Of a stretch of 62,094 nucleotides of DNA, positions 1-20,999 are shown piece by piece. The DNA is from a virus. Its lineage: Duplodnaviria; Caudoviricetes. Where the stretch lies: the IMG/VR virus record IMGVR_UViG_3300042141_000119, positions 1 through 62,094 of that record. One strand, given 5' to 3'. The number at the start of each line of letters is the position of its first letter. Positions within the stretch are counted from its first letter, which is position 1. The notes beneath the pieces were generated by a model. That model worked only from the letters and a program-made list of their open reading frames with translations. It was not told the DNA's origin and searched no databases. The position numbers and the translations under genes were made by a program.

Positions 1-127
1 GTGCGGTATCGCTCTGCCTACAAGAACTACGTCAATCGGCTAACGCCACACACCCTGTCGGCCAGAGGGCGGCTCGGAACAAGCTGGTGTTACAGGGTGG
101 ACACGGCGGGCTGGCACGGCACTGGCG
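1..127 (+). repeat. Terminal direct repeat, left copy (circular assembly overlap)
   Basis: 1-127 is identical to 61968-62094; 127 matches a common assembler k-mer size. Confidence 0.95.
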
Positions 128-636: not shown

Positions 637-648
637 GGAGCTTCCATC

Positions 649-828: not shown

Positions 829-832
829 CCCC

Positions 833-2018: not shown

Positions 2019-2046
2019 CCACTAATGCGACCACGACGAACTCGAT

Positions 2047-2346: not shown

Positions 2347-2348
2347 GA

Positions 2349-3221: not shown

Positions 3222-3222
3222 G

Positions 3223-3552: not shown

Positions 3553-3555
3553 ACG

Positions 3556-5291: not shown

Positions 5292-6112
5292 AGAACCCTC
5301 CAGCGCGACGAGCCGGAGTGGTAAACGAGCGTTGCGGACCCGCCGTCAGCGTACAGGATCACGTTTCCGCCATAGGAGGACCGGAACCTGTTTGCGGCCG
5401 TGCTTGCGGAGGACTCGTGCGTCAGTGTGATGGCGGCACCGCCAGAGGAATTGACGTTGACGACAGTCACGGCGAATCCGTTCTGCACGCCAGAGGACAC
5501 AAGCCCCGTGATGCTTACGGCAGCAGAAGACGACACGAAATAGACATCGCCCACGCCCGGCGCCCAGTCGTCCTGGCTGGCGGAAAGCGACGGGGTTCGC
5601 ACCACTGGGGCAACAAAGTCGGAGCCAGTGCATCTGTGGGACGCTGCGTGCGACACGGCCGCTCGAGCATCCGACAGGCGAGAGTCGCTGCCGAGAACAA
5701 CCTGCGTGGATGACGCATCGCCGGAGGCAGCTACGTCCCGCGAGGCCGCCGTGCCAGCGTCTGTGACGCTCGCCAGAAGGTGGCTGTGAGACGCTGCCGC
5801 TGCGCCAATGGACGACGGCGTGATCGGGTCCGATCCTGCCGAACCGTGCGTGGAGGCGTGAGAGGTCGGCGTGCGGCTATCCGTCAATCGGCTGTCGGTC
5901 GATGCCACCGCACCAATAGCCGCCGGAGTAATCGGGTCGGACCCGGCCGAACCGTGCGTGGAGGCGTGGCTGGCGGGCGGTCCGCCGCCAAGAGCAGCGA
6001 TGGCCCCGAGCGTGACCTTCGACGTTACCGAGCCGTCTGCGCTGTCGGATGGGACAACGGCGCTTGCTGTGGCGGCGGCAGAAGGAAGGGCTGAGATTGT
6101 CGTGTCTGGCAT
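5288..6112 (-). CDS. Tail fibre-like protein
   Basis: Repeated HASTHGSAGSDPITP and DSRL.D.R motifs; ATG 6112. Confidence 0.65.
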   Translation of the reverse strand: MPDTTISALPSAAATASAVVPSDSADGSVTSKVTLGAIAALGGGPPASHASTHGSAGSDPITPAAIGAVASTDSRLTDSRTPTSHASTHGSAGSDPITPSSIGAAAASHSHLLASVTDAGTAASRDVAASGDASSTQVVLGSDSRLSDARAAVSHAASHRCTGSDFVAPVVRTPSLSASQDDWAPGVGDVYFVSSSAAVSITGLVSSGVQNGFAVTVVNVNSSGGAAITLTHESSASTAANRFRSSYGGNVILYADGGSATLVYHSGSSRWRVL

Positions 6113-6246
6113 TAGTATCTCGCAGTAATAGATTGGCCCGCCTGCGACAGCAGTGCGCTGCCGGAGGCTGTCTTCACAGAATACGTCACCCGCACCGGCG
6201 GCGGCGACACTTTCACTGGCCTCAGATTGGCTGCGCTTCTCGGCAT
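6112..6246 (-). CDS. Small hypothetical protein (44 aa, MPRSAANLRP...)
   Basis: Manual translation; TAATG coupling to the next gene. Confidence 0.5.
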   Translation of the reverse strand: MPRSAANLRPVKVSPPPVRVTYSVKTASGSALLSQAGQSITARY

Positions 6247-6254
6247 GACAACGC

Positions 6255-6533
6255 TCAGTTCTTTTGATTTTCGTCTGCGGCAGGGACGCTCGCCGTCGCA
6301 GCACGGCCATCGCCGTCACGCATCGCGTACAGCAGCCGCGTCTGCTCCTGTATGGCGCGCGAGATGTCGTGCTGGGTAGACGCCATCTCCTTGAGGAATG
6401 ACCGATGGGCGTCCACCATAGGGATCACAAGGTCCGTTCGGACGAACCACAGGATTGCCGTTGCGAGAACCAGCCCGAAGCCGTACCGCTCCAGCATCCG
6501 CAACGCCGTCTCGTACACGTCCACGCTGCTCAC
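6255..6533 (-). CDS. Single-TM membrane protein, holin candidate
   Basis: RYGFGLVLATAILWFV hydrophobic segment followed by coiled-coil-like region. Confidence 0.45.
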   Translation of the reverse strand: MSSVDVYETALRMLERYGFGLVLATAILWFVRTDLVIPMVDAHRSFLKEMASTQHDISRAIQEQTRLLYAMRDGDGRAATASVPAADENQKN

Positions 6534-6901
6534 CTCTGCGCTCCGCTTCCACGATTCCATGCTGCCATCTTTACCCTGTTTGCGGGCCGCGAGAGCCACC
6601 ACTGCAAGACAAGCTGGCAGATCGCAGACACCGCAGACATCAACACGAATGACCAGAAGAACCCGTACCGCTTTTCCGATCCGCGAACCGACTCGTAGAC
6701 ACGCGACACGCTCGCGGCCACATCGTCAACGGCCCGTTCTTCTTCTGCCGAGCCCCTTCCGCAGGCCAGAAGCCGCTCGACGGGCCACTCCTGCACCGCA
6801 ATCAGCGTCATGTCGTCAATGCGATCCTTCCCGACCAGGCGCACCCTCACCGGAAGCCTGCTGCGGACGTACTCGCACAGTTCTTTCGGGCCTTCGCTCA
6901 C
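6530..6901 (-). CDS. Membrane protein
   Basis: YGFFWSFVLMSAVSAICQLVLQWW hydrophobic segment; overlapping start/stop coupling. Confidence 0.5.
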   Translation of the reverse strand: MSEGPKELCEYVRSRLPVRVRLVGKDRIDDMTLIAVQEWPVERLLACGRGSAEEERAVDDVAASVSRVYESVRGSEKRYGFFWSFVLMSAVSAICQLVLQWWLSRPANRVKMAAWNRGSGAQR

Positions 6902-7176
6902 CACTTCACCTTGTTCGACCAGAATCGTGCAGAAAATATTGAAGGATCGGAGTCTTGGGCGTTGTGGCGCGCGTAGTAGCTGCGGCGGCGGGCCCTTTCG
7001 GCGTCCGTCTTTGGCGCACTGCCAGCGCCCTCCACGCCCTGCTGACCAAACCGTATCAGCCGCTCCTCGCCGCCACTGCACGCCTTGACAACGTGCGACT
7101 TGGTGTCGTGCGACGGCGTCTTTCTCGGGCTGTTGCACTCTAGCTCTGACTTGAGCGAGCGAATCCTATCGGACAT
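6898..7176 (-). CDS. Conserved small basic phage protein
   Basis: KSHVVKAC...IRFGQQG...RRSYYARH...SARFWS..KW; GGGAGG RBS. Confidence 0.65.
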   Translation of the reverse strand: MSDRIRSLKSELECNSPRKTPSHDTKSHVVKACSGGEERLIRFGQQGVEGAGSAPKTDAERARRRSYYARHNAQDSDPSIFSARFWSNKVKW

Positions 7177-7414
7177 GGCACCTCCCGTCGGCGCAGGTGC
7201 CACTAAGCGTCACCTTCGGTCGGTTCTTGGCGCACGGGCAGGAGGGCGGGCAACTGCACGGGTATCGGTGCAGCCTGTCGCCTGACCACACCATGCCGCT
7301 GCCACCACACTCCGCACAGCACTTGCTCGCGGGTTGCGGCGAGGGCTGCGGCGCAGACGGAGAGCCCGCAAACGCGAGCCACACGGCAACTACGGCAACA
7401 GAGATGCTCACCAT
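7166..7414 (-). CDS. Small secreted Cys-rich protein
   Basis: Hydrophobic N-terminus, CCAECGGSG...CSCPPSCPC. Confidence 0.5.
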   Translation of the reverse strand: MVSISVAVVAVWLAFAGSPSAPQPSPQPASKCCAECGGSGMVWSGDRLHRYPCSCPPSCPCAKNRPKVTLSGTCADGRCHVR

Positions 7415-8352
7415 AGCACCTCCTTCGCTCCCCAGTCTCTTAGCTCTCGCTTTGGAAAGCCGTTGACGTTTGAGACGGCATACGTTCCGCCAGCGTCGAT
7501 CATTCGCTGGGCCACCGACTGCGAAATCCAAAAGGAGCCGTCTGGCTGATCGTGAACTTTCGGGCCAGAAACCCACGAAAAACCCCATGAGTTTTGGACG
7601 CAAAACCGGCAGTCTCCCTTTCGCGTGTCGTCCGAAGCCGTCCACTGCATCGCATGGGCCCAAGAGCCCTTCGGGAACAGCATCCCCTCAGAGTTGCGTG
7701 CGGAGTTGAACCCAACACCCGAGCAGCACACGAGCCCATACCCGGAGGCGATGCAGTCCCTCGCCTGCTGCCATGTCGTGACGAGGGAAATCGTGCCGAT
7801 CCTGTGCTTTGCGGCTTCCGCCGTCACCTTTGCCGGGACTCCGCGCCCGCCCCAGTTGATGCCGATGCTCGCGTTGTACTTTGAGAGGTCTAGCCCAAGT
7901 TCGGCGTAGGGCTTTCGGAGCATCAAGCCTCCCGTCTTGTGCGCCCAGCCGACGATTTCGGAGCAGCTTGCGCCTTGCCCGCTGTGCCCTCGAGCGCCGT
8001 ACAGCGGCTCAGTGGCAGTCCGGTCCACCCAGTCCTCTGTGGTGTGGATGTCCGGGTCATTGGCCCTCGCTTGGTCGGCCGATCCGCGAACCGCCATCGA
8101 GACGCAGTCGCCTGTGGTCTGAACCTCGTCGTATGGCACCCGCCCGGCCGCTTTCTCAAACGCCACGACGGCCTTGAACGGCAGGCACAGCCTTCCTTCG
8201 CCCGCGCCCGACAGCGTGTCGCCGAAGAGCGGCATGGGGAGCGACGACAGCAGCCGCTCGGTTGCCTCTGGGTCGCAAAAAGCACCAACGAGCCCATGCT
8301 CGTAGGCTTCGACAATCTCAGAAGGTGAGGCGAACAGATCGCTCATCGCCAC
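7408..8352 (-). CDS. Papain-like (C1 family) cysteine protease
   Basis: Q..GDCVS (Gln/Cys), WAHAM (His), QNSWG (Asn), GSFWI. Confidence 0.75.
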   Translation of the reverse strand: MAMSDLFASPSEIVEAYEHGLVGAFCDPEATERLLSSLPMPLFGDTLSGAGEGRLCLPFKAVVAFEKAAGRVPYDEVQTTGDCVSMAVRGSADQARANDPDIHTTEDWVDRTATEPLYGARGHSGQGASCSEIVGWAHKTGGLMLRKPYAELGLDLSKYNASIGINWGGRGVPAKVTAEAAKHRIGTISLVTTWQQARDCIASGYGLVCCSGVGFNSARNSEGMLFPKGSWAHAMQWTASDDTRKGDCRFCVQNSWGFSWVSGPKVHDQPDGSFWISQSVAQRMIDAGGTYAVSNVNGFPKRELRDWGAKEVLW

Positions 8353-8354
8353 AC

Positions 8355-8771
8355 CTAACGCACGCTAGAGAACGCCTTCGCAGCAGCCTGACGCGACTCT
8401 GCGGTCAACTGCGAATCTGTCTTCCCAATCGCCTCAAGGAGGTAGGCGTCGAGCTTGTCGCCAAGACCGACGTACTTGCCAACCATTCCTGTGTGGGCGA
8501 ACGCCATTTGCAGGGCAGACTTGTACCGATCCCGCAGGCCGAAGGTCGTCTTGCACACCGGATCGGGAGACAGGCCGTCACGCACAACGATGTCCGCCAT
8601 CGCAGCGTGAAAGTCACGCAGCAGCTTGGCGTCCGCAGCGGTAACCCCAGCCAGGATTGCGGACGGCACTATGACCGGGACGGCCACAGGCTGGCGTACC
8701 GCACCGGCGACGCCAAGCATGGCGGCGGACAGGGCGACCAGAAGCCCGGCTGTGATGATGCCCACCCTCAT
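8355..8771 (-). CDS. Hypothetical protein with N-terminal signal/TM
   Basis: ORF track; hydrophobic N-terminus; gene coupling. Confidence 0.55.
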   Translation of the reverse strand: MRVGIITAGLLVALSAAMLGVAGAVRQPVAVPVIVPSAILAGVTAADAKLLRDFHAAMADIVVRDGLSPDPVCKTTFGLRDRYKSALQMAFAHTGMVGKYVGLGDKLDAYLLEAIGKTDSQLTAESRQAAAKAFSSVR

Positions 8772-9007
8772 CTGCCGCCCTTTCTCACGGGATTCACAAG
8801 GGCGTCCATGAGGGCCCTAGCGGCGGCGGCGACCGGCTGCTCGCCGGATGCCTCAGCGTCCGCCGCAAGCGCGAACAGTCGATTGACCCACCACGCCCTG
8901 CGAGACGGTGAAATGCCGGATGGCCGCGAGAACTTCGGCAGGTACGGGTACGCTGCGGCGACGCCGGAAGCCAGCAGCGCAACGGCGGCGACGATAGCGG
9001 CCGTCAT
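8768..9007 (-). CDS. Small membrane protein
   Basis: ORF track; ATGA overlaps on both sides. Confidence 0.55.
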   Translation of the reverse strand: MTAAIVAAVALLASGVAAAYPYLPKFSRPSGISPSRRAWWVNRLFALAADAEASGEQPVAAAARALMDALVNPVRKGGR

Positions 9008-9282
9008 TCTGGAACCTCCGTCAGGCTGACGGCAGTCGCCAGTTTCACGATGTAGTCCACCAACTCGCGACCGGCCTGCGACATCAGCACCGCTTGAATC
9101 CGCTCCAGCAGATCGTCGTCAATGTGCGTCCCGGTCTTGGAAGCGACGAACCGCATGAGTTTGAGCGCCGCGTCGATCCGCTCTTGAGCGGTTTGCGCGC
9201 CGGATATTTCGGACACAATCGACAACGCGGGTGCCCATTCCACCAGCTGCCGAATCTTGTCCCCTACCGTGACGACTGCCAT
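9004..9282 (-). CDS. Hypothetical protein
   Basis: ORF track; GGAG RBS; coupled to the next gene. Confidence 0.6.
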   Translation of the reverse strand: MAVVTVGDKIRQLVEWAPALSIVSEISGAQTAQERIDAALKLMRFVASKTGTHIDDDLLERIQAVLMSQAGRELVDYIVKLATAVSLTEVPE

Positions 9283-9664
9283 TGGGTTTTCTCTCCGTCA
9301 GCCTGGAAACGTGCCTGACTAGGAGATTTATGTCCGGGCGGGGGCGGGCCCGTGACACTATTTTTCGCCGCACCAAACACTCCGAAATGCCTATATCCCG
9401 GCAGGTCTGCTCGAACGAGAAGTCGCCGCCGCTGCCGTGAAACACCCACCTGTACGCCGCCACCTGCCTCCTGAGCGTCTCGGCCGCACGGTAGCCGGTC
9501 TTGTAGACAAGGTCATGGCCCTCCCGCCTGTGCGCACGGCACAGGTCGATGATGTGGCCGTAGGAGCGAACAACCACCTCTATGCAGAATCGCCTCCACC
9601 CCTCCTCGCAGGACTCGGCAATGTTCTGGTCGTCGTACTCCGGCGGGTCGGGGAGGGCAATCAT
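9119..9664 (-). CDS. Hypothetical protein (possible DNA-binding/regulator)
   Basis: ATGA coupling at 9661-9664; W.F....DFSFEQTCRDIGI motif. Confidence 0.5.
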   Translation of the reverse strand: MIALPDPPEYDDQNIAESCEEGWRRFCIEVVVRSYGHIIDLCRAHRREGHDLVYKTGYRAAETLRRQVAAYRWVFHGSGGDFSFEQTCRDIGISECLVRRKIVSRARPRPDINLLVRHVSRLTERKPNGSRHGRGQDSAAGGMGTRVVDCVRNIRRANRSRADRRGAQTHAVRRFQDRDAH

Positions 9665-10020
9665 TTCGTCGGTGCCTCGCAGAATCCGGCTCGCAGCTTT
9701 CCTTCGTTCAGTTCGGGCCACACTTCGAGAGAATGGATCGCGCCCATCACGTTCCACGCCGCATGACCCAGATGGTCTTCGTCACGGTTGCCGGATAGGA
9801 ACAGGTACAGGTGCCGTAGGGCATGGTTGAGAAGGTCGTTCGCGGGCATCCCCTTCTCCCAGTTGAAGTCGCCGTATTTCCTCGCGCCCTCAGCACAGGC
9901 GGCCGCAACGGCCGCGAGGCCGATTGGGCTGATGAGGTCGTACCTCAGCGACTCGGCGTCCGAAGACCGCACGGCCCCAGACGAGTAGCGAACAGAATCC
10001 TCAGCAATCGTCTTTATCAT
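9661..10020 (-). CDS. dATP/dGTP diphosphohydrolase-domain protein (DUF5664-like)
   Basis: SGAVR, RYDLISP, GARKYG..NWEKG, RH, EDHLGHAAWN. Confidence 0.8.
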   Translation of the reverse strand: MIKTIAEDSVRYSSGAVRSSDAESLRYDLISPIGLAAVAAACAEGARKYGDFNWEKGMPANDLLNHALRHLYLFLSGNRDEDHLGHAAWNVMGAIHSLEVWPELNEGKLRAGFCEAPTK

Positions 10021-10532
10021 TTCTTCACCTCAAGGAAACGCGACTGAAACAACTCCTTCGCCTGCTGCCAGCCCAGCGGCGACGGCGAGCCGCCAACCGC
10101 TTCGGCCTCGATGCCCCAGTCGTGCTGGACCGACAACAGAAATTGCTTCTCCCAAATCAATGCCCGATTGTCCGCCGCCTTCACCGACGGCGGCGCGGGC
10201 CACCGCAGGCCGAACGCGCTGGCGATAACCTGCTGAATCCGCTTTTCCAGAGCGACGTACTCCGGGAGCATCGCCTTGAGCGGCCGGGCGACATCGCCCA
10301 AATACGCCTCGCTGGCATCGTGAAGCAGGCCCCACAGCGCATCCTCCTGCGGCACCAGCTTCGACACCACGACGCTGTGCTGGGCGACCGAGTACGGCTG
10401 CGTGGTGTGCCCCGTAAATCGGTTGAGCATCGACAGCGCGTGCGAGATGTCTGGCAGGCGCACATCGGCCTCGCTGAACTCGCTGAGGTCGATCAGCTTC
10501 CCGGTGTGTGTCTGCATCGTCGTTGCGTTCAT
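10017..10532 (-). CDS. HD-domain phosphohydrolase (YfbR/YfdR-like)
   Basis: DISHALS..NRF.GH..YSVAQHS...GLLHDASEAYLGD. Confidence 0.85.
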   Translation of the reverse strand: MNATTMQTHTGKLIDLSEFSEADVRLPDISHALSMLNRFTGHTTQPYSVAQHSVVVSKLVPQEDALWGLLHDASEAYLGDVARPLKAMLPEYVALEKRIQQVIASAFGLRWPAPPSVKAADNRALIWEKQFLLSVQHDWGIEAEAVGGSPSPLGWQQAKELFQSRFLEVKK

Positions 10533-11065
10533 GCCACCTCCTCTTGCTCGCCGCACACAAGCGGCCCTATCGCCGACAGCTTCGCCTTCGGGACGAAATA
10601 CGCCTCGCCATATCCGCCGTAGTTCCGCCGGAAGCGTGCGTCCTTAGCGTCCCTTCCTCGCATCCATCCATGAACCAAAAAGTCGTTTGGTCCGCCGGTC
10701 ACCAGAACGAAGATGTCGCCGTCCGCATCGTCGTCACGCACCAGCAAGTCATAGTCGTGCTGGGACCGCGTCCGCACTTGAATCGCACCGACGTCGCCGC
10801 CGGTCTTGAACGTGTTCACAGAGCCAGACCAGTAGCGCCCGGTCGCCTTTGCGAACGCGCACTCACCCAGAGCGCCGAGAATGTGAACGTGCCACTCGCT
10901 GTCTCTTGTTGGTCGCGAGTTTTCCAGTCCTTTTCTTAGCGCCTCGACGTTTCGACTTACGCCGACGAGAGCCGCTCGGCTCACCTCGAACCACTCCAGC
11001 CGCACCCGTATCGGGCCGCTTGTAGCGAATCCATCCGTCGTCGTCTGGGATTGGCGAGCCTTCAT
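10529..11065 (-). CDS. Hypothetical protein, possible PD-(D/E)XK fold
   Basis: GALGECAFAK...GGDV..IQVRT; start uncertain. Confidence 0.55.
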   Translation of the reverse strand: MKARQSQTTTDGFATSGPIRVRLEWFEVSRAALVGVSRNVEALRKGLENSRPTRDSEWHVHILGALGECAFAKATGRYWSGSVNTFKTGGDVGAIQVRTRSQHDYDLLVRDDDADGDIFVLVTGGPNDFLVHGWMRGRDAKDARFRRNYGGYGEAYFVPKAKLSAIGPLVCGEQEEVA

Positions 11066-11105
11066 CTTCTTCCTCGTCTTCCAGCGGCCCAAAGTCCTTT
11101 GGCAT
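10863..11105 (-). CDS. Small acidic-then-basic protein (MPKDFGPLEDEEE...)
   Basis: TGATG coupling with upstream gene; overlaps the next ORF. Confidence 0.35.
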   Translation of the reverse strand: MPKDFGPLEDEEEDEGSPIPDDDGWIRYKRPDTGAAGVVRGEPSGSRRRKSKRRGAKKRTGKLATNKRQRVARSHSRRSG

Positions 11106-11806
11106 CACTGTGCATCCATGACTTGAGAAACGAACGTCGCAATCTGCTCCAGCGGGAAAGTCACCAGCCACTCCGACTCGTTGCGCCTGTGCAAGACCAC
11201 AGGGACGAGCGAGCCACACTGCTCACGCGCCTTTTCCATGACGGCCGTCAGGTTCAACGCCTGACACCGCTTGACCTCGAGCCAGAGGTTCGGAGTGCCA
11301 GGAGCTATGAGGTCGCTCGCGCTCTCCGTACCGGAGTGCTGCTGGCTGCGTCGTGCGTGCGCTCGCGGGACAAGCCGGTTCCACACGGCCGCCGCCTCCA
11401 ACTCACCGCGCTTGCCCTTCTGCCTGCTGTTGATTGCCATTTTCTCTAACTCCTGCGGGATGCCGTTCCGTCGTCGCCACTCAAGGACGTAGGGCGGAAA
11501 GCCATCCGGCCCATAGCCGAGATGGCGCTTGCGGCGAAGCGACGCCAAAAACTCCGGGTCGTAATTACCGTCATCGCACTCTCGCTTTGCGGTAAGGCAC
11601 TGGGCCTTCGTGAGGTTGTTCCGTCCGCCGAAATGCAGGCCGTCGTGGCACCACACGCAAAGCCGAAGCAACGCCCGGCGGTCGTGGACCCTTCCGGCTC
11701 CCTGCTGGAGGTGGTGGATGTGCAGTGCTTCCGTTCTGCTCCAGCACACCGCGCAGAACTGCATCTGCTCCGCGAAGGCCGATAGTTCTTCACGCCCATC
11801 GCTCAC
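11105..11806 (-). CDS. Zn/HNH-like domain fused to Holliday-junction-resolvase-like nuclease
   Basis: CxxC..HH...LC..CH N-terminal half; SRQKGKRGELE...SDL...LEVKR C-terminal half. Confidence 0.7.
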   Translation of the reverse strand: MSDGREELSAFAEQMQFCAVCWSRTEALHIHHLQQGAGRVHDRRALLRLCVWCHDGLHFGGRNNLTKAQCLTAKRECDDGNYDPEFLASLRRKRHLGYGPDGFPPYVLEWRRRNGIPQELEKMAINSRQKGKRGELEAAAVWNRLVPRAHARRSQQHSGTESASDLIAPGTPNLWLEVKRCQALNLTAVMEKAREQCGSLVPVVLHRRNESEWLVTFPLEQIATFVSQVMDAQ

Positions 11807-12105
11807 TCTGCCTCCCTGTGGACTGCCTCCACGATGCCAGCCACAGCACGCGAAAAGTTCTTCGCGTCCTCGACCGTCCCGAACTCAATCGACCACTTCA
11901 CAGTCGGGTGGCAGAAGCCCTCCGTCGCAACGCCATGCTCTCGGACTTCCTCGACCCAGTTGTCCTTGCACGCAGCAAGCCCGGCGACGATCCTGGCGTT
12001 GGCGATAATCTCCTCGTTCTCAAGCAAGAACCCGCTCAACGCCTTAGCAAGAAATCCACTCATAACCAGCGCTCCTTTGAAAAGGTTCGACACCTCAGCC
12101 TCCAT
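11803..12105 (-). CDS. Hypothetical protein
   Basis: ORF track; coupled genes. Confidence 0.5.
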   Translation of the reverse strand: MEAEVSNLFKGALVMSGFLAKALSGFLLENEEIIANARIVAGLAACKDNWVEEVREHGVATEGFCHPTVKWSIEFGTVEDAKNFSRAVAGIVEAVHREAE

Positions 12106-12370
12106 GCGTTTTCAGCCAGTTCGCCGCCGTCGCAAACCAGAACGACAGCAGGGTCAGGTCTTCCGCACTCGTGACGTTCACTGTTCCGTCCGTCGCTATC
12201 GCAACGCACGACTTGCTCGGCTCCTCCATCCACTCGGCCGCCTCAGGGTCGTCGCCAATGATCGCGTGCATAACGCCCATGCCCTCCATCGGCCTGCACA
12301 ACGCGGCCAGCTTCGCCCCGTTCGATCCCGTGTATTTCAGCAGCACCAAGTCTTTCGCCATCGCCGTCAC
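12095..12370 (-). CDS. Hypothetical protein
   Basis: ORF track; coupled genes. Confidence 0.5.
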   Translation of the reverse strand: MTAMAKDLVLLKYTGSNGAKLAALCRPMEGMGVMHAIIGDDPEAAEWMEEPSKSCVAIATDGTVNVTSAEDLTLLSFWFATAANWLKTHGG

Positions 12371-12641
12371 CCTGTTCGCGCACCGCTTCCGTGCTGAGAA
12401 GGCCGCGCTGGCCTGCGTCAGCTACCCCGTCATGGGGTTGCGGTGTCAGCCTTATTTGGCCTTCTCCTCAGCAATCCACCGGGACGTAGCGGCTTGGGCC
12501 TGCGACGGCTTGCAGCAGGATCGACTACCTGCCCGTTGCCCGGATTTCGCGCTGACACCACACGGCCGCTCGATCAAGTTCAGAGCGGGTTCTTTAGGCT
12601 CGACCGTTTTGATTTCTTGAGCGCTGACCGATACGAGGAAA

Positions 12642-13037
12642 TCAACAGCGCTGTGTTTTGATTTTTCGGAGTACGGAGAAGTCGCCCCATTTGGCGACCG
12701 AAGACCAGTACAGCCACCGGCTGCCGTTCGTCGCGGCGACAGGGACGCACCCAACGACGCCCGTCCGAGTGTTGACGAGGACGAACGCATCGACATGGGT
12801 TGGGCAGTAGGGTTCGTTTCGTGCCCGGCCACGCCGCAGGCGAACTCGCCTGCCGTGATGGCCGGAAGCTGCCGACGCCTTGACTTGAATCCGCCAGTGC
12901 TTTCGGCCGGAGAACGCGAGAAGGTCGTAGCCGTCGTCCACCAGAGGGACGGCGACTGCGTACCCGGAGCGCAGCAGCCTCTCGACTGCCACAGCGACTC
13001 CGATTTCTCCGACGACCCGGCCATCCGTAGCCTCCAT
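12642..13037 (-). CDS. PD-(D/E)XK endonuclease
   Basis: GEIG...GYAV..P..DDGYDL...RIQVKAS...Y....DAF; GGAGG RBS. Confidence 0.7.
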   Translation of the reverse strand: MEATDGRVVGEIGVAVAVERLLRSGYAVAVPLVDDGYDLLAFSGRKHWRIQVKASAASGHHGRRVRLRRGRARNEPYCPTHVDAFVLVNTRTGVVGCVPVAATNGSRWLYWSSVAKWGDFSVLRKIKTQRC

Positions 13038-13052
13038 GCGTCTGACCTCCGG

Positions 13053-14642
13053 TCAGGACTGCGGCTTCTCCGACTCACGCCTGCTCAACTCACGACGAAC
13101 CGCCGCCTTGAACGGGGAGTCCTTCTTCTGCGACTCCATCACCCACGACAGGTAGCCGTCTGGGATGGAGCGGAGCGGCTGGCCTCGATACTTGCCGTAC
13201 ATCATTCGCCAGCCCCGCTCCTTCTTGCCTTCGGGCTTGGCGAAGGGGTCGCGAGTCTCGTGGTCGAACGTCACGCCGACGAGCAGCGACTTGCGCTTCT
13301 CAAGAAGCTCCTGTGCCTGTCTCTCAAGAGCCTCCAGTTCCGCCGAGTCGGCCTCGCGGATGGCCTCCATCGGGTCGCAGCCGTCCATCGACAGGGCGGC
13401 GGCGAGGCGCTCACGGCGAGTCGGTGACTTCCGCAGCTTGGCGTCGAGAACGTCGAACACCGTCAGCAGCTGCTGGTTGCGGAGATTTCCTGTCAGGTCG
13501 TAGTAGCAGAAGTGCGGCTTTCCGCTGGCGGCGATTGCGGCACGACGCTCGTCGCGGCTCATCTCCGGGTGCAGCGTGCCACCCAATGCACGAGTGCCTC
13601 TGCCGATTCGCTGCTCCAGCCGCGAAAGGCTCTTGGTCGGCGCTGCCGAATAGATGTTTCGGAGTTCTGGAAAGTCCCAGCCGAAGCCAAGAATCCCGAC
13701 GTTGACGATGATCTTCCGCTCGCCGCTGATGAAGGCGTCCATGTTCGCCTTCCGCTCGTCTGCCCGCTGCTTCGAGTAGACGACGCTGGCTGCGACACCG
13801 TACCGAGAAAACACCTCCACAAGCAGCTTGGCCTGCCGGATGGAGTGGGCGTAGACGACGCTCGGTTGCTGCTGGAACGTCGAGAGAACGAGCGACGTTA
13901 CCTCCTGAGCGCAATGCTCTGCGGACAGGATGTCGCTGAGTTGCTTGCGGTCCCACTCGCCAGCCACCTCGTCCACCAGCGTCAGGTCGATGCTCTTGGA
14001 CTCGCTCAGGAAGCACTTGGGCGGGACCAGCCATGCGTCATCCAAAGCCTGCCGCAGCGTGTAGACCGACTGCGGGCGAGGGAAGTACCGCAGCCCCCTG
14101 CCCTTGCCCTTGTACGGCGTGGCAGAGAAGCCCACGACGGTCGCACCAAGCGACTCAAAGTGGCAGAGCATCCGCTCCATCGAAGCGGTCATCTTGTAGT
14201 GGCACTCGTCCACGCAGACCAGCGACACGCGGTCGTAGGCGCGGGCCTTGTAGCGGTCGTTGGAGAGCAGGCTGTCACGCGACCCGACGATCACGCGGCT
14301 CCGAATCCCCTCGATCCACTCTGCCCGGCTCCCTTGATGCTCAACGTCGCACCGCTCTCCCAGCCGAAGCTCCAGGCGGTCCCGGCCCTGACGCATGAGG
14401 TCGATCAGCGGAACGATGAAAAGCGGGTGCTTCGCGATGCGGCACAGTTCCGCGACAACTTCGGTCTTGCCGGTGCCCACCGGCTGGCAGACCGTGATCC
14501 GTCGCTCGCCGTTCCGCGCCGCACGGCAAACGTCCTCTACGGCCTGTAGCTGGTAATCCCGGAGGAACTGCCGCCTATCGGCCCGCTCGACCTGCCGGGA
14601 AACCCTGTCGGCACCAACGCACTCTGGGCAGTCGCTAGTCAT
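13053..14642 (-). CDS. Superfamily 2 (DEAD/DEAH-like) helicase
   Basis: LRDYQ, GTGKT, DECH, SATP, QRIGRGTR; C-terminal GKYRGQPL..IP..YL.W domain. Confidence 0.9.
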   Translation of the reverse strand: MTSDCPECVGADRVSRQVERADRRQFLRDYQLQAVEDVCRAARNGERRITVCQPVGTGKTEVVAELCRIAKHPLFIVPLIDLMRQGRDRLELRLGERCDVEHQGSRAEWIEGIRSRVIVGSRDSLLSNDRYKARAYDRVSLVCVDECHYKMTASMERMLCHFESLGATVVGFSATPYKGKGRGLRYFPRPQSVYTLRQALDDAWLVPPKCFLSESKSIDLTLVDEVAGEWDRKQLSDILSAEHCAQEVTSLVLSTFQQQPSVVYAHSIRQAKLLVEVFSRYGVAASVVYSKQRADERKANMDAFISGERKIIVNVGILGFGWDFPELRNIYSAAPTKSLSRLEQRIGRGTRALGGTLHPEMSRDERRAAIAASGKPHFCYYDLTGNLRNQQLLTVFDVLDAKLRKSPTRRERLAAALSMDGCDPMEAIREADSAELEALERQAQELLEKRKSLLVGVTFDHETRDPFAKPEGKKERGWRMMYGKYRGQPLRSIPDGYLSWVMESQKKDSPFKAAVRRELSRRESEKPQS

Positions 14643-14944
14643 TTCGACCTCGCCTTCTTCTTGCGTGCCTTGCGGACCTTCTTGGCTGGCTTGACGAGAG
14701 GCTCCCTGTCGCCGCCTCGCCAGCGGCTGCTGCAAATCGTGGCCTCGCAAGGCTTGGGCTCCGCAGGCACAGCGATTTGCAGCGCCGCCTCGAACTTCTC
14801 ATTGACCCGAGACAGCACCTCTAGCTCCGCGAGGAGTTGCGGCACTGCGCTGGCGCAGAACGCAATCGCGTTCTCTGCGTCCAGCTTCTGCTGAACAGCA
14901 GCAATCGAAATCAGTCGTGCGTAGGCGATGAGTTTTTCGTGCAT
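14639..14944 (-). CDS. Hypothetical protein
   Basis: ORF track; coupled to helicase. Confidence 0.55.
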   Translation of the reverse strand: MHEKLIAYARLISIAAVQQKLDAENAIAFCASAVPQLLAELEVLSRVNEKFEAALQIAVPAEPKPCEATICSSRWRGGDREPLVKPAKKVRKARKKKARSK

Positions 14945-15020
14945 TGGTAAAAATGCCGGGTGATCTGATCGCCGCCCGGCGCGACGCTGAGGAAACGCTC
15001 AGACCTGCGTGTGTTGTGGA

Positions 15021-15698
15021 TCAAGCCAGCGCTGGCTGACGCTCCTTCTTGGCGGACTCTTTTGCGTCCAGTTCCGCCGCCACCTTCTCGATCCGCTCCG
15101 CAGATGCGGGCGGCAGCATCCCTTCGGCAACGCCCTTCTTCGCACGCTCGACTTCGGCCTTCCTGCCAGCCGCATCCTTCGCGGCCCGAACCTTCGCCAG
15201 GAGCGCCTGCTCGATGCGTGCCTCGTCGTTTGCTGCGGCGACCGCCATTGAGCGGCCAGCCATCTCGCCGTCGTCGTCGTCGTCGGCAGCGATGCCAACG
15301 GCCGCACACAGGGCAACCCGCTTGAGGTAGGTCGCCGTCTTGGCGAACTCCTGCGGCGGGATGTTCCCCTTCATGGGCAGATAGGACCGCTCGAATTGCC
15401 CGCTGGAGTGCCCGATGGTCGTGACAAGCATCACGCCACCGTCGTCCTTGAACGGGTGAAAGGTCTGCCGGATGGACAGGCCGTGCTTCCCGTAGACGGC
15501 CCTCACCGTGTCGAACACGGTCGCGAGGTCCGCGTAGTCAGGCAGGAGCTTGCCCGTTTCGCGGTCCTTCTTGGCCCAGTTGGAAAAGCAAGTTCGCGGA
15601 GCGTTGCGAAGCTCGCCGAAAGCCTTGCCCATAGCGGCGTAAAGCTCATCGACGGCCTCGCTGCGCTCGTTCCAAATGCTCGTAGAAATCGCAGACAT
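15021..15698 (-). CDS. ERF-family single-strand annealing protein
   Basis: YADL, HGLS..Q, HSSGQF, TYLKR..L.A..GIA.DDDDDG. Confidence 0.85.
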   Translation of the reverse strand: MSAISTSIWNERSEAVDELYAAMGKAFGELRNAPRTCFSNWAKKDRETGKLLPDYADLATVFDTVRAVYGKHGLSIRQTFHPFKDDGGVMLVTTIGHSSGQFERSYLPMKGNIPPQEFAKTATYLKRVALCAAVGIAADDDDDGEMAGRSMAVAAANDEARIEQALLAKVRAAKDAAGRKAEVERAKKGVAEGMLPPASAERIEKVAAELDAKESAKKERQPALA

Positions 15699-16774
15699 CA
15701 GACTCTCCTCAGTGCATGGGCCGGAAACGGAAGCTCAACCACCTCGCCGTGTGACTCCGGCAACCACCAGTCGAGGCTTTCACGAAGACGAAGATCAGCG
15801 AGGGCGCGGACCATCTGCTCGCGACCCTGCTCAACGACCTGCTCTGGCAGCGTCACGACTTGAACGTCGTGCGGCAGCGAGGTCGAAATGACGATGTAGT
15901 GGATCGGCCGTTCGAGGAGGCCGCAGGCTTCCATCCCGGCGCGATACCACGCCTCAGAGAAGCCGTAGCGGAAGTCAAGCGCTGACTTCCAGAAGTTCGC
16001 GAGGATGTCGGCCTCGCGAGTCGTCTTGAGGTCTACGACGATGCCGTCGCTCGTCAAGGCGTCGAAGCGGCAGCGAAGCAGGTGGCCGTCTGCCGTTTCC
16101 CAGCGGACGGAGAGTTCCCTCTCCACGATCCGCGACATCAGTTCGCGTGCAGCAGGGTGCCGCCTGATCGCCTCTGCCTCCAGCCGAAGCTGGCGGGCGA
16201 GCTTTGGCGACACGACTGTCGCGTCCGGGCCAGCCTCGTTTTTGGCCCACTCAAGGGCACTTTTGCCAACCTGCCCTGTCGGTGTTAGCTTGTCTTCTGG
16301 AGGGACCGCCAGCGAGTCAAGGAAGGCATCGCCCTGCTCGAACCACGAGTGGAGCAGCGAGCCATGCTCTAAGGCATCGCTGCTCTGCTGGGGGATCGTG
16401 CGGGCGACGTAGCGGCCGTAGTACAGGGCTGTCGAGTCAAGAAACGTCTTGACCGGCGAGCAGTTCCTGTACGAATCATCACTGTGATAATCGGCGTTGC
16501 TCTCTCCACGCCGAACATCCGCAACCGCAGGCCCAGCCGAAACGATCTGAGGAAAAAGAGAAGGGTGGCTGACGGGACTCGAACCCGCGACCCCTAGAAT
16601 CACAATCTGGGGGTCGCTCGCTTGGTAGACGGTGCCGTCGGTAGCGGACTCGACGCTTGTGCGAGGGGCTGCCGATGCGGTGCCGCCAAAAGGGTGGTTG
16701 AGCCCCGCCGAAGCCACAGGAAAAAAGTCTTCCCGCTTCTTTGAATCGACAAGCTGTGCCTCACGCACTGCCAT
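15698..16774 (-). CDS. RecE/exonuclease VIII-like PD-(D/E)XK protein (DUF3799-like); start uncertain (GTG ~16603, ATG 16774 or 16795)
   Basis: SNADYH, GSLLH, ELSV.W, RCRFD, VDLKTT, Y....WY; adjacent to ERF. Confidence 0.8.
   Translation of the reverse strand: MAVREAQLVDSKKREDFFPVASAGLNHPFGGTASAAPRTSVESATDGTVYQASDPQIVILGVAGSSPVSHPSLFPQIVSAGPAVADVRRGESNADYHSDDSYRNCSPVKTFLDSTALYYGRYVARTIPQQSSDALEHGSLLHSWFEQGDAFLDSLAVPPEDKLTPTGQVGKSALEWAKNEAGPDATVVSPKLARQLRLEAEAIRRHPAARELMSRIVERELSVRWETADGHLLRCRFDALTSDGIVVDLKTTREADILANFWKSALDFRYGFSEAWYRAGMEACGLLERPIHYIVISTSLPHDVQVVTLPEQVVEQGREQMVRALADLRLRESLDWWLPESHGEVVELPFPAHALRRV
16562..16610 (-). other. 3' half of tRNA-His(GTG): candidate attP core
   Basis: Minus strand reads CCAGATTGTGATTCTAGGGGTCGCGGGTTCGAGTCCCGTCAGCCACCC (anticodon loop, T-arm GGTTCGA, acceptor 3' strand); no 5' half; next to tyrosine recombinase. 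Confidence 0.75.
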
Positions 16775-17585
16775 GATGCCCGACCTCCATGCCATCGCTT
16801 CGCGTTACTGCGAAGAACACATCCTTGCGTCCGACTACGCGGCAACTCTATTGCGTACCGCTAAGAATTGTCAACGGTTTACAAGCGTCAACCACTTCCT
16901 TCGTCATCGACTCTCGGCGGTCAAGCCGATCACGGTGAAGAACGACAGGGCGATGCTGCTGATCCTCATGCGGTACGCCTACGAGAACGGAATCGTGGAC
17001 GAGTACCCTCGCGGCGTCGCCTCCATCAAGGCACCGAAAGCGCCGACGAAAGCATGGACTTTAGCCGAGTGCTGTACAGCTGTCAACCAAGCCAAAAAAC
17101 TGCGAGGGGGGCGTTTTCGGAATGGCGCAGACAAGGGGGAGTTCTTGGAATGTTGGATTCGGCTGGGCTACGCGACGGGGGCACGCTACGGCGACATAAT
17201 GGCGTTTCACAAGCGGCATTTCGCAGGAAATAGGCTGTACTACGCGCAGGGAAAGACCGGCAACGCTATTTCCGCAGTGCTTGACGAGAACGTCATGCGG
17301 TGCGTCCGCTCGATGCTGTCGCAAAGCCCTGACGGCCGTGTTCTTGGGTGGGTGTGCCAGAAGCGCTGGGCCATGCGGCTGATGAAAAAGCTGCTTGCCG
17401 AGTGCGGCCTGGACGGCAGCAGTAAATGGCTGCGTCGGTCTGCCGCGACTCACGTTGAAATGAAGCAGCGGGGGGCGGCGAGGCTGTTTCTCGGCCACAA
17501 GACCGCCGGGCTTGCCGACAAGTTCTACGTTGACTGGGGGCAGGTCGGCTCGGACTTTCCGCCGCCGCCGCCGCTAGTCGAATAG
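16773..17585 (+). CDS. Tyrosine recombinase/integrase
   Basis: TGARYGD (Arg), QGKTG (Lys), KWLRRS (box II variant), LGH, KFY (Tyr). Confidence 0.85.
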   Translation: MMPDLHAIASRYCEEHILASDYAATLLRTAKNCQRFTSVNHFLRHRLSAVKPITVKNDRAMLLILMRYAYENGIVDEYPRGVASIKAPKAPTKAWTLAECCTAVNQAKKLRGGRFRNGADKGEFLECWIRLGYATGARYGDIMAFHKRHFAGNRLYYAQGKTGNAISAVLDENVMRCVRSMLSQSPDGRVLGWVCQKRWAMRLMKKLLAECGLDGSSKWLRRSAATHVEMKQRGAARLFLGHKTAGLADKFYVDWGQVGSDFPPPPPLVE

Positions 17586-20500
17586 CGAAGGGATTTGCGT
17601 GTCGGACTTGCGCTTGGCTCGACGCTTCCTCTGCGCGCCCTTCGGCTTGCGTGCCTCGCGCCGTTCCCGCGAGAGGGCGCGAGTGACGGCAAGGCGACGC
17701 AGCGCCCAGTCCGGTACGTTCGGCTGCATGTCCTGCGGGATATAGACCTGCTTGAACTCTCGCGTGTATGGGTCGATGGATTCCTCGATCTCTCGAACCG
17801 CGTCGGCCGCCGCTTCTTCCGCAGACTCATCCTTTACGTGAGTGCCCGTAAAAGTGTTGATGGCGGTCTTGGCTGCACGCGACGAAAGAGGCGCGTCTCC
17901 TCGCAGGTCCGTCAGCGAGCGCATCATGTACAGAGGCCGCTGCGCGAACGGCAGGTTCTCGATGGCTTTCTCTAGGACGGTTGGCAACTCGACGGACCTG
18001 TCGCCGGTCACGTTGCGGAGGATAGCCTCTGGCGAAGAGGTGGACTCTCCGGCCGGGCGATTGGTGTAGAGGTCTTTGTCGAACACCGTCTCAAGCCCGA
18101 CGCGGTAGAGCGGATGAAGCTGCATCCCTAGCTGACGCGCCGTGCCCTTCACGGTGCCAGACAGCGTGTCTCCGACCGCGAGCATGTTGAGTTGGTCGAA
18201 GCCCGGCAGGACGCCACCGGGCACCCAGTACCGCTGCGTTCCGGGCGCTGGCCTTCCGCCAAGCATTTCCGGCACTGGGATGGCGAGCCGAGAGCGGAGC
18301 GACGAAGACATATATTGGTCGTCGTTTGCCTCCTGAGCATTTTGCGTGGCCTGCACGAGTTGGCCGAATCGGCCGCCCGGACGCTCGACCAACTGCCGCA
18401 AAACCTCACGAAAAATTCTTGACTGGTACGTGTACCATGGGAAAAGATTTTTGAGGTACAGCCGCTCGAAGTCGCTCAGGCTGCTCATGTCTACGTGGAC
18501 GCGCTTCATCGCAGCGGCAGCCGCCTCCGGCTCCACCCCCTGCCCGACGAGAGCCATGTAGCCGCTGATCCGGTTGATGCCGTCCGTCAGCGAATTCATT
18601 TTTTCGCCCGCCCGCATGATCGGATTCTGCGTCTCCACGAGCGGCTTTAGCTTGGATCGCCATGTCGTGAAGTCGCGACCGAACTGGGCCCACGTTCTTC
18701 CCTGCTGCGGCATGAGTTCGCTGACGATTGCCCCGACGTTCACGGGCTGCGCGCCGACGAGAGGGTCGAGCGCTCGCTGGCCGATAGTGCTGGCACCTAT
18801 CTCGAACCCAGTGGGCCCCTGCACCAGCCCCGTACCGGCGAGTTCGCCGTAGAAGCGTGCCACGCCGTCGTCGCCCGCATAGCGGGTCTGCCGAGACAAC
18901 CACTCGCGGAACTGCTTCCCGTCAGCGCCGTCGCTCATCAGCGAGCGGGCTGCACTGATTGACGCCGGATCAAATGCCCCCTCCAGCCAGTTGCTCACCG
19001 CCCCCGAGTAGAGGTCGCGGACGGCACGCGAGGGCCAGGTGAGGATCGAGCCGCGCCACGCCTGCGTGTAATGGTCGAGCCAGTTGAGGAGCTTGCCGGA
19101 GGCTTCTCCGGTCGAGTAGGCGTCTCGCGCACGGGCGAGCCTAGCGACGGCTTCCTCTGGTATCGAAACCTCTGCCAGAGAGATGTTGTCGGCTTTCGCG
19201 CCCCACAGCCGTGCGAGCCGCTCGCGAATGTGCCGCTCACCGCCCGTCGCCCCCTCGTCGTAAGTTCGTGCGCCGATCCGACGCAGGGCCTCCTTCATGG
19301 AGATGTGGCGGCTCTTGTCACTGTACGCCCCCTGCTCCGCGAACGTCGCAAGCGAGTCGTACATCGTCTTCATCGTGGCCTCAGATTCCGCGCGGCCGGT
19401 CAGGTAAGAGCCGATGCTCTCGACTGGGTGCTGGCCGAAAAGCGGAGCCTTCTTCACGACATCGTCGGGAAGGGCGTTGAGCGTGCGAGCCACACGTAGA
19501 GCCTGCGCTCGAGAGATTGGCGGCTGGCCCGGCGGAATCATCGGAGTCAGCTTGTCGATGATGTACTGGGCCGCCTCCTCGTCGCTTCCGGCGGCACGCT
19601 TGGCACCTGCGACGTAGGCGTCCTGCGACAACTCCATGATCGTGTTGCGTCCGCCAGGAAGCTGAAACGCATCCGTGCGCCGGAGCATATCGCCGGTAAA
19701 GGCCGACAGCGCGTCGCCCAGCTTGCGATCACGCTTCGATGCCATGTCCAAAGCGGCCTCTGCTTTTCGAGGCAGGTACTCCGCTCCGTACTTGTCAACG
19801 ATTTCAGCGTCCGTCAGGCCCGCCATCCGCGACCTAGCGACGGCCTCTTCGCGGAGGTTTTTCCAGCCCGCTATGTAGTTCTCGGCTCCCGGCCGTGCCG
19901 CCAGCCACGCCTTGTCTTCGGCTGACCAAGCCGCCTGCGGAGTCTCCAACAGCCTGCCCATGACGCGGTTGCCCTCCTCAGTAAAGGCGTCTGGCGTCGT
20001 TTCGTAGAGCTTGGCACGGTTGTATACGTCTGCGTTCGCGGCAACAGACCTCGCCTTCCTGCGGGCCCCGAAGTCCGCGACCCGCGTCAACTGGTCTTCG
20101 GCATCGACCGCCCCGCCGACGCGGTTGTCGAAGAACGAAGCTGCGTAGCGGCCCGGAGCAGACCACCTCACGGCCTGCCCGAGCGTGTCGAGGGCGTCGG
20201 CGTAGTTGTCGCCAAAGCCCTTGCCGAAAACGTCTCCGGTAATCTTGGCATCTCCAAGCGGAAGCCCGAGTCCGAACGTGTCGGCCAGCTTCTCGTTGCG
20301 GACCTTGTCGAGGCCATCCCCCAGAAGCCTCCTGGCGGCCTCCTCAGCCTGCTTGGGGTCGTCCGCGTGCCGAATGAGGTCGTCCAGAGTCACAGCCCTG
20401 CGGGCCGTTCTGGTGCCGTAGAGAGGCCGCCCCGTGACAGCCGGGTCGAAAGCGCTCAGTTGCTTCCTGCCAGCGCCCTTTAGCTCGGCCATCGTCCGCT

Positions 20501-20999
20501 TCGCGACAGTCGGAAGGTCGCCAGCGGCTGCGGCTCCTGACGAAATGGCCTTCTTGGTGGCAGCGGAGGCGGCGTTGTCCAGAAGATTCAGCGACTTGGC
20601 CGCACGCCCTGCCTTCGTGAGCGATGCGGCCGGGCCGGAGATGAACGACAGGGGGTCCGTAATCGTGTCAGCCGCGAGCCCGAGCGCAAAAGACCCCCAG
20701 TTGTCCTCCTGCGGGACGATCCCGTAGCTCTTGAGAAGGTCGCGACCGCCAACTCTCTCGCCGGGCTTGCCAGCCAATACGCCGCGAATGTAGTCGCCCG
20801 GAGCCGACAGTGCGTCGCCAAGCCTGCCAATCGTTCCGCCAGCAAGTTCGCCAGCCTGCCGAAGAATGGACTCGCGTTCTTGCGGTGTAACGGCATCCTC
20901 CGAGACTGCTTCGTCTCGCAGGGTGGCGTCATCAAAAAGCGGCAAGTAGCCAGCAGGCCGCTTGCCGCGACTTGGCCGCAAGTCGTCGTAAAGCAGCAT
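17574..20999 (-). CDS. Large virion protein (probable internal/ejection protein)
   Basis: 1141 aa, helical Ala-rich; FER...FPWYTY motif; end of structural block. Confidence 0.55.
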   Translation of the reverse strand: MLLYDDLRPSRGKRPAGYLPLFDDATLRDEAVSEDAVTPQERESILRQAGELAGGTIGRLGDALSAPGDYIRGVLAGKPGERVGGRDLLKSYGIVPQEDNWGSFALGLAADTITDPLSFISGPAASLTKAGRAAKSLNLLDNAASAATKKAISSGAAAAGDLPTVAKRTMAELKGAGRKQLSAFDPAVTGRPLYGTRTARRAVTLDDLIRHADDPKQAEEAARRLLGDGLDKVRNEKLADTFGLGLPLGDAKITGDVFGKGFGDNYADALDTLGQAVRWSAPGRYAASFFDNRVGGAVDAEDQLTRVADFGARRKARSVAANADVYNRAKLYETTPDAFTEEGNRVMGRLLETPQAAWSAEDKAWLAARPGAENYIAGWKNLREEAVARSRMAGLTDAEIVDKYGAEYLPRKAEAALDMASKRDRKLGDALSAFTGDMLRRTDAFQLPGGRNTIMELSQDAYVAGAKRAAGSDEEAAQYIIDKLTPMIPPGQPPISRAQALRVARTLNALPDDVVKKAPLFGQHPVESIGSYLTGRAESEATMKTMYDSLATFAEQGAYSDKSRHISMKEALRRIGARTYDEGATGGERHIRERLARLWGAKADNISLAEVSIPEEAVARLARARDAYSTGEASGKLLNWLDHYTQAWRGSILTWPSRAVRDLYSGAVSNWLEGAFDPASISAARSLMSDGADGKQFREWLSRQTRYAGDDGVARFYGELAGTGLVQGPTGFEIGASTIGQRALDPLVGAQPVNVGAIVSELMPQQGRTWAQFGRDFTTWRSKLKPLVETQNPIMRAGEKMNSLTDGINRISGYMALVGQGVEPEAAAAAMKRVHVDMSSLSDFERLYLKNLFPWYTYQSRIFREVLRQLVERPGGRFGQLVQATQNAQEANDDQYMSSSLRSRLAIPVPEMLGGRPAPGTQRYWVPGGVLPGFDQLNMLAVGDTLSGTVKGTARQLGMQLHPLYRVGLETVFDKDLYTNRPAGESTSSPEAILRNVTGDRSVELPTVLEKAIENLPFAQRPLYMMRSLTDLRGDAPLSSRAAKTAINTFTGTHVKDESAEEAAADAVREIEESIDPYTREFKQVYIPQDMQPNVPDWALRRLAVTRALSRERREARKPKGAQRKRRAKRKSDTQIPSLFD

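Follow-up and report, generated by a model that had tools for sequence, protein, structure and literature searches.

The window examined in this report is a complete virus record of 62,094 bp (IMGVR_UViG_3300042141_000119; Duplodnaviria, Caudoviricetes), with direct terminal repeats at its ends and a G+C content of 63%. The locus of interest holds the gene of a RecE-like exonuclease, the divergent gene of a small tyrosine integrase, and, inside the front part of the exonuclease gene, a copy of the 3' part of a bacterial tRNA-His gene that is a candidate for the core of the phage attachment site (attP). Other loci with which it was compared carry L numbers, genomes carry G numbers, and contigs carry C numbers. 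The core-bearing set, found by a protein scan together with a core scan, comprises 11 viral contigs: the window itself, L002 to L005, L022, L023, L025, L026, L028, and L029 (L019 is the L004 contig again, and the two are counted as one).

Genes and tRNA-His fragment at the locus

The exonuclease gene lies on the minus strand (15698-16774) and has 358 codons plus the stop. Its product matches PF12684 with E = 2.1e-15 and 57.6 bits, against a gathering cutoff of 26, and phrog_412, annotated "exonuclease VIII," with E = 1e-45, which identifies it as a DUF3799 or RecE-like exonuclease of the PD-(D/E)XK type. These matches begin at residue 96 of the 365-residue open reading frame (ORF) listing, equivalent to residue 89 of the 358-residue protein. 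The nuclease domain starts near the motif RRGESNADYH, and D238 and D248-L-K250 are invariant in the alignment.

The integrase gene, on the plus strand (16773-17585), encodes a protein of 270 residues that matches phrog_1 with E = 3.8e-11. A Pfam search gave no match for it at E of 0.01 or below. Its profile matches eight Protein Data Bank (PDB) sequences titled Integrase or Lambda integrase, with E-values from 1.3e-4 to 8e-4, and its TGAR and LRRSAATH segments align with the corresponding motifs of those proteins. R138 (in TGAR), K161, R221/R222 (in LRRSAATH), H242 (in LGH), and Y252 are invariant in all nine integrases aligned and are candidate catalytic residues by comparison with known motifs and by the PDB-profile alignment; the first His of the HxxR motif is not evident in the integrase alignment.

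Both genes start within a single palindromic CATG (16772-16775), the integrase ATG occupying 16773-16775 on the plus strand and the exonuclease ATG 16774-16772 on the minus strand. This arrangement is seen in 11 of 11 core-bearing contigs and in all three contigs of a sister group described below (the L006 group). The exonuclease ATG is preceded at a distance of 9 nucleotides (nt) by a GGAGG Shine-Dalgarno (SD)-like motif (16784-16788, minus strand), which lies antisense in integrase codons 4-6, and GGAGG or AAGGAG is found 6-10 nt 5' of that ATG in each of the 10 contigs that hold the relevant sequence. No comparable motif precedes the integrase ATG. A leaderless start at the CATG was considered and rejected, there being no -10-like hexamer at a suitable distance on either strand.

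The tRNA fragment (16563-16608, minus strand) lies 164 nt from the integrase ATG in the window. A 45-nt string from it (16564-16608) has exact matches in 11 stretches of a collection of species-representative genomes, all 11 of which are complete tRNA-His(GTG) genes; 10 are titled Planctomycetota (Planctomycetaceae, Pirellulales, or Planctomycetia) and one Chitinophaga. Alignment to these host genes extends the unbroken identity to 46 nt, corresponding to ARAGORN positions 30-75 of a 75-nt gene, a span that begins with the 5' strand of the anticodon stem and reaches the 3' end of the tRNA. At the next position, 16609, the host genes have T and the phage C. ARAGORN called no tRNA gene anywhere in the window, and an Rfam search of 16300-16900 gave no tRNA match and only sub-threshold noise. 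The original prediction, made from the letters of the window alone, had taken 16562-16610 for the 3' half of tRNA-His, had proposed a comparison with tRNA genes, and had named a complete tRNA as evidence to the contrary; its limits prove accurate to within 1-2 nt, the comparison yields the 11 complete genes just described, and no complete tRNA is called in the window.

Across the 11 viral contigs the core is invariant except for one position, the first base of the acceptor 3' strand, which is C or T when the window is set beside L004, L005, and L022-L029 and is synonymous in the exonuclease frame (GTC or GTT), whereas the flanks are only 44-77% identical. These matches point to a temperate phage that infects freshwater Planctomycetota and has the fragment as its attP core, a reading that belongs to the overall explanation favored here, which we regard as probable. 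The host of a group of uncultured freshwater phages could then be assigned to Planctomycetota carrying the matching tRNA-His. Two further observations concern the fragment. The contig titled uncultured Chitinophaga sp. (L014) has a tRNA-His 3' part identical to the Planctomycetota type and may be mis-binned. In L028, ARAGORN calls a 74-nt tRNA-His (3768-3841) where the other contigs have the fragment alone; the integrase and CATG directly upstream are as in the others, and the call was set aside.

Reading frame across the core and promoter-like sites

The exonuclease frame passes through the fragment as ...DPQIVILGVAGSSPVSHP..., the core itself being translated as ..QIVILGVAGSSPVSH.., and the other two sense frames have stops within the fragment. 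Between the fragment and RRGESNADYH there is no in-frame ATG, GTG, or TTG in the window, nor in nine of the 11 core-bearing contigs; in the exceptions, L004 and L029, a GTG stands one codon ahead of RRGE. From the upstream ATG region to the nuclease domain, the sole canonical candidate for a start is the anticodon GTG itself (16601-16603, minus strand), an in-frame Val codon that has no SD-like motif upstream. The original prediction had noted the frame running through the fragment, the lack of an in-frame start from there to SNADYH, and the two ATG codons in one CATG. All three observations hold in the window, the last of them in every core-bearing contig, and a comparison of homologue N termini, which it had suggested, finds the stretch from ATG to core open and in frame in 11 of 11.

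A start at the CATG would give the exonuclease an N-terminal extension of residues 1-79 (16538-16774, minus strand), in which a hypervariable spacer is followed by the tRNA-encoded segment and a short linker. In all 11 viral contigs, the core is found upstream of the exonuclease homologue and in the same frame. The distances from ATG to core are 166, 169, 169, 151, 118, 145, 157, 130, 112, 142, and 148 nt, 10 distinct lengths, and those from core to RRGE are 58, 52, 52, 55, 55, 55, 55, 43, 46, 43, and 55 nt; every value in both series is 1 modulo 3, and every insertion or deletion in these intervals is a multiple of three. Spacer sequences have pairwise identities of 44-77%, and the exonuclease frame is open through the spacer in all 11 contigs. 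The other two sense frames are open in three and one of the 11, and the antisense frames in five, three, and none. Shuffling puts the chance of an open spacer at 0.17-0.32 for each contig, with a product of 8.6e-8; the contigs are partly dependent, and counting five independent lineages brings this figure to about 1e-3, the length test aside. An AlphaFold2 model, based on a shallow alignment of 11 sequences, assigns residues 1-79 predicted local distance difference test (pLDDT) scores of 23-42 and has a confident fold thereafter, and the extension is accordingly predicted to be unstructured. The open frame and its conservation are observed directly, and they suggest that the extension is translated.

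A consensus scan of window positions 1-19000 found two sigma-70-like sites and no others, both directed toward the exonuclease and both antisense within the integrase gene: P1 (TTGACA-18-TAGAGT; 16845-16874, minus strand; integrase codons 25-34) and P2 (TTGACA-17-TAAAGT; 17058-17086, minus strand; codons 96-105). A count of two does not exceed the shuffled expectation of 2.1, and the evidence for P1 and P2 is their conservation. At P1, the integrase codons TGT-CAA and a Leu codon CTA (TTA in L028) are invariant at the nucleotide level in 10 of 10 relatives; these codons are rare in the long genes of the window, where TGT accounts for 12% of Cys codons, CAA for 18% of Gln codons, and CTA and TTA for 5% and 0.4% of Leu codons. 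At P2, all nine relatives share ACT-(T/G/A)TA and GTC-AA(G/C) without change, though the encoded residue varies among Leu, Val, and Ile. This pattern suggests that the exonuclease operon has P1 and P2 as its promoters, placed antisense within the integrase gene, if sigma-70 rules are taken to apply in Planctomycetota.

A candidate integrase promoter, TTGAGC-16-GAAAAA, lies in the opposite orientation inside the exonuclease extension (16698-16725, plus strand). A GGGGGTTG-type motif is present 71-80 nt before the integrase ATG in nine of the 11 contigs, and in eight of the 11 this site is the best sigma-70-like match (TTGnnn-16-(G/C)AGAAT, GAGACT, or TAAGCT); in the window, L002, and L003 the best match lies elsewhere. 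Were this candidate a true promoter, it and the exonuclease promoters would point toward each other.

Downstream of the exonuclease gene, the same strand carries the gene of an Erf-family single-strand annealing protein (15021-15698; PF04404, E = 1.8e-11; phrog_2324, E = 4.2e-19), whose ATG overlaps the exonuclease TGA stop as TGATG, and then that of a ResIII/DEAD helicase identified by Pfam search (13053-14750). Nearly all long ORFs of the window are on the minus strand, and the integrase gene is a single reversed gene between this exonuclease-Erf-helicase array and an ORF of 1141 residues in the ORF listing (17574-20999, minus strand). That ORF and the integrase gene converge and overlap by 12 nt (17574-17585), which leaves no space for a terminator between the upstream minus-strand array and the integrase. 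A blastn comparison of 5 kb of the window with phage GenBank records gave no match.

The L006 group (L006/L007, L020, and L021) has exonucleases 62-65% identical and lacks the tRNA-His core. Its members (L006:3785-4020, L020, and L021) share the CATG and the GGAGG, and their extension, some 56 codons long and open, is built around a different conserved block of 19 nt. No target for this block was found among 176 genomes of the host family, and Rfam searches of these loci were empty. In a wider sample of the phylum, 10 of 401 genomes contain exonuclease relatives, all of them distant, and none of these 10 loci has a tRNA.

Integrated relatives

Site-specific integration of such a phage would leave the two parts of the exonuclease gene at opposite ends of the prophage. 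The original prediction had pointed to prophage relatives at tRNA-His as a check; none were found there in the species-representative genome collection, the five tRNA-His host genomes, or the metagenome contigs, and related prophages were found instead at tRNA-Met. A six-frame profile search of the host family, which includes the tRNA-His host genomes G001-G005, detected exonuclease relatives in nine of 176 genomes, with E-values from 3e-52 to 5e-28. Eight of the loci were retrieved. Six have a complete tRNA-Met(CAT) gene immediately upstream of the exonuclease and in the same orientation, whereas two are truncated at the end of their contig. The exonuclease frame of the six continues back through the 3' part of the tRNA (..HKPGV.GSSP.., with the T arm in the same frame as in the tRNA-His phages) until a stop within the 5' part closes it. 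Four of the six lack any in-frame start ahead of the nuclease domain, and the remaining two have only a GTG in the T arm.

The clearest case is genome G497. On its contig C39 (L069), LssY_C and AbiEii genes come first, followed by tRNA-Met, the DUF3799 gene without its start, an ORF resembling Erf, and a ResIII helicase gene, and at this attL-like junction (the prophage end at the tRNA) the first in-frame start lies 178 codons in. The 3.9 kb upstream of the tRNA is present in 139 of 176 family genomes and is for this reason regarded as chromosomal. Two genomes without the exonuclease, G523 (L077) and G494 (L083), have the same flank, and their tRNA-Met genes differ from that of the lysogen in the T arm and the acceptor 3' strand, as expected if the prophage supplied the 3' part of the tRNA. 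We note separately that the gene just upstream of the occupied tRNA-Met in G497 (L069:8895-9584) is of the AbiEii toxin family.

A second contig of G497, C173 (L084), has an integrase homologue (E = 1.6e-34) with CATG at its start and, about 210 nt farther on, a 3' fragment of tRNA-Met. ARAGORN makes no tRNA call on this fragment, which over 52 nt shares 98% identity with the native tRNA at the empty site of G494. Upstream of the fragment the exonuclease frame runs without a stop for 61 codons and includes GTG codons at 2032, 2071, and 2185, and a TTGACT-16-TATGCT site lies within the integrase gene. Beside the fragment there are in fact two integrase homologues in tandem on the same strand (L084:14-700 and 1187-1981), which could represent tandem elements at a single tRNA or a duplicated integrase.

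The tRNA-Met prophages therefore appear, from the arrangement of their sequences, to be in the predicted split state, with a complete tRNA and a start-less exonuclease gene at one end and, in one genome, a candidate attR at the other. No free-phage form of the tRNA-Met group was found in viral contigs by protein or by pattern. For annotation, the implication is that prophage exonuclease genes directly behind a tRNA would be split genes rather than pseudogenes.

For the tRNA-His phages, three relatives were found in metagenome contigs, each of which has the attP arrangement or lacks the core, and none has a tRNA. In four sequencing runs, coverage at the core is about 10- to 50-fold higher than around it; contigs break there, and neither attL nor attR was resolved. 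The loose read ends at the core correspond to the tRNA-His 5' half and to varied DNA from downstream, which fits copies of the host attachment site (attB), and one X7 contig spans attP.

Proposed split operon and its alternatives

We propose the following mechanism. In the orientation of the tRNA, the phage order is integrase (antisense, with P2 and P1), SD, ATG, spacer, core, nuclease body, Erf, and helicase. On circular or infecting DNA, transcription would begin at P1 and P2, and translation would begin at the ATG of the CATG and cross some 55 variable codons, then the tRNA-derived codons, before reaching the nuclease domain, with Erf and the helicase next on the same strand. A crossover in the core would produce an attL consisting of the host tRNA 5' part, the core, the nuclease body, Erf, the helicase, and the DNA beyond, and an attR consisting of the integrase with P2 and P1, SD, ATG, and spacer, followed by the core and then host DNA. 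In the integrated state, the nuclease body, Erf, and helicase would thus sit directly behind the rebuilt tRNA without promoter, ribosome site, or start codon, while P1, P2, SD, and ATG would remain with the integrase at the other end of the prophage, pointing outward; excision would restore all three to the operon. Because P1/P2, SD, and ATG lie across the crossover from the nuclease, the recombination module would be assembled only in excised or incoming DNA.

It is likely, in our judgment, that the attP core occupies the 5' coding region of the RecE-like (DUF3799) exonuclease gene and that integration cuts the operon from its promoters and start. The integration-coupled switch of the original prediction is in this respect largely supported, through the open ORF in 11 of 11 contigs, the SD-like motif in 10 of 10, the conservation of P1 and P2, and the split tRNA-Met loci; the role as a switch is the part that stays conjectural. 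The split may be an adaptive switch or no more than a tolerated consequence. Going further, site-specific recombination might itself be the on/off switch of a recombination/replication operon in a lineage of Planctomycetota phages, the operon being an expressible unit in circular DNA alone, and the promoters that face each other across the shared CATG forming a convergent-transcription decision circuit between integration and recombination/replication. We offer this tentatively and lean somewhat against it.

Several results weigh against the proposal of a split operon. Neither attL nor attR turned up for a tRNA-His phage; a scan of the species-representative genome collection with a pattern from the exonuclease alignment gave 54 pattern matches and no relatives, none of the five tRNA-His host genomes has an exonuclease relative, and the metagenome contigs break at the core. 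In C173, the ATG of the CATG is out of the exonuclease frame, which opens 32 nt later at a GTG, so that the exact start arrangement is not universal. The DNA beyond the C173 fragment had no significant match by tblastn or blastn to the downstream flank of G523 (L077), and blastn against the G494 locus (L083) matched the 52-nt tRNA part only. G+C at third codon positions (GC3) is weak in the extension, at 0.45-0.70 versus 0.7-0.9 in the domain, the residues of the extension are unconserved, and AlphaFold2 gives residues 1-79 no fold; it may be that the extension is translated yet has no separate function. The sigma-70 consensus is an assumption where Planctomycetota promoters are concerned, and the candidate integrase promoter is weak in the window.

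The strongest alternative accepts the split and denies it regulatory meaning. An integrase-attP cassette would have settled at the front of the exonuclease gene, the extension would be translated only because the promoters lie upstream of it, and a repressor would silence P1 and P2 in lysogens. Such a history would suit an extension that is hypervariable and predicted to be unstructured, the different start arrangement of the tRNA-Met prophage on C173, and the replacement of the core by another block in the L006 group, which is what a cassette would predict. The architecture, however, is kept over at least three core types and over exonuclease divergence reaching a profile E-value of about 1e-28, frame and openness have been preserved through many insertions and deletions, and the physical split follows from the anatomy regardless of any repressor. 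We consider this alternative unlikely, though it deserves more weight than the two that follow.

A second possibility is that the exonuclease starts at the anticodon GTG, or at a noncanonical codon after the core, so that the upstream frame would be an untranslated leader and integration would alter the promoter and not the protein. An upstream frame that is open in 11 of 11 contigs at 44-77% identity, with its 10 distinct lengths all in frame, is hard to reconcile with a leader; an SD-like motif precedes the ATG and none precedes the GTG, and in a lysogen the GTG would sit within a folded and processed tRNA. What speaks for such a start is that the GTG is in frame (16603-16601), that GC3 upstream is weak, and that distant homologues have open frames of 276-310 residues without a long extension in seven of the 10 places listed. 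On balance we find it highly improbable. The view that the fragment is no more than a relic, or resembles a tRNA by chance, and that the phage does not integrate at tRNA-His, can draw on the failure to find an integrated tRNA-His form in genome contigs, in the five host genomes, or in the metagenome runs, but it must contend with 46 nt that are invariant amid near-random flanks apart from C or T at the first acceptor base, with a tyrosine integrase adjoining the core, and with relatives integrated at the same sublocation of tRNA-Met, and we give it almost no credence.

If the split-operon proposal is correct, it would extend integration-coupled gene control from repressors, as in BPs, and conjugation genes, as in Tn916, to the homologous-recombination module of a phage. 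It would also describe an unusually dense overlap, in which a tRNA half serves both as recombination site and as coding sequence, two predicted promoters and a ribosome site lie antisense in integrase codons, and two start codons share one CATG.

Relation to known integration-coupled systems

Expression depends on the state of integration in lambda sib retroregulation and in the intP gene of Mx8 and the int gene of SSV1, which are altered or split by their own attP. In these cases the integrase itself is affected, and here it is the homologous-recombination module.

In the mycobacteriophage BPs, attP lies inside the repressor gene and integration shortens the protein (PMC4557955). The MabN and MabB prophages of Mycobacterium abscessus have their core within the repressor ORF, and their attL overlaps a tRNA-Thr gene of the host (PMC9934374), so that a translated core of tRNA origin has a precedent. 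The present phage resembles these systems in having the attP core within a phage coding sequence, such that integration would change a gene product. In the BPs type, the core is near the 3' end of a repressor gene, and integration removes an ssrA-like C-terminal degradation tag and so activates the protein. Here an exonuclease gene carries the core, close to its 5' end, and what integration would remove is promoters, ribosome site, and start codon, with loss of the product, and probably of the operon, as the expected outcome. The analogy with BPs drawn in the original prediction is thus apt as to principle and does not carry over to the gene, the end of the gene affected, or the outcome. With an exonuclease split in its 5' part, in place of a core in a repressor gene and the removal of a degradation tag, the present system is related in principle to BPs integration-dependent immunity and is not a member of that class.

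In the integrated form of Tn916, the conjugation genes are promoterless, and they are read from Porf7 across the joint after circularization (PMC11658703, citing Celli and Trieu-Cuot 1998). The common feature would be an outward promoter at one end of the integrated element that meets its target genes only in the circle, a role that the promoter-like sites P1 and P2 would fill here. Tn916 differs in being a conjugative element with non-tRNA targets and a joint in noncoding DNA, whereas the joint here is a tRNA half inside an ORF and the promoter-like sites are antisense in the integrase gene. The outcome expected here is, by analogy, closer to that of Tn916 than to that of BPs.

In the HTVC019P-type pelagiphages, all attP sites are stated to lie in noncoding DNA between the integrase and RNA polymerase genes (10.1101/410191). 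Those phages likewise have a tyrosine integrase adjoining an attP core whose sequence duplicates a portion of a host tRNA gene, but the core described here is coding. A search of the open-access literature turned up no description of attP placed within an exonuclease gene, and none of attP cutting a phage operon off from its promoter. Both attP sites within genes and switches that depend on circularization are established forms of integration-coupled control, and the present system is a variation on them.

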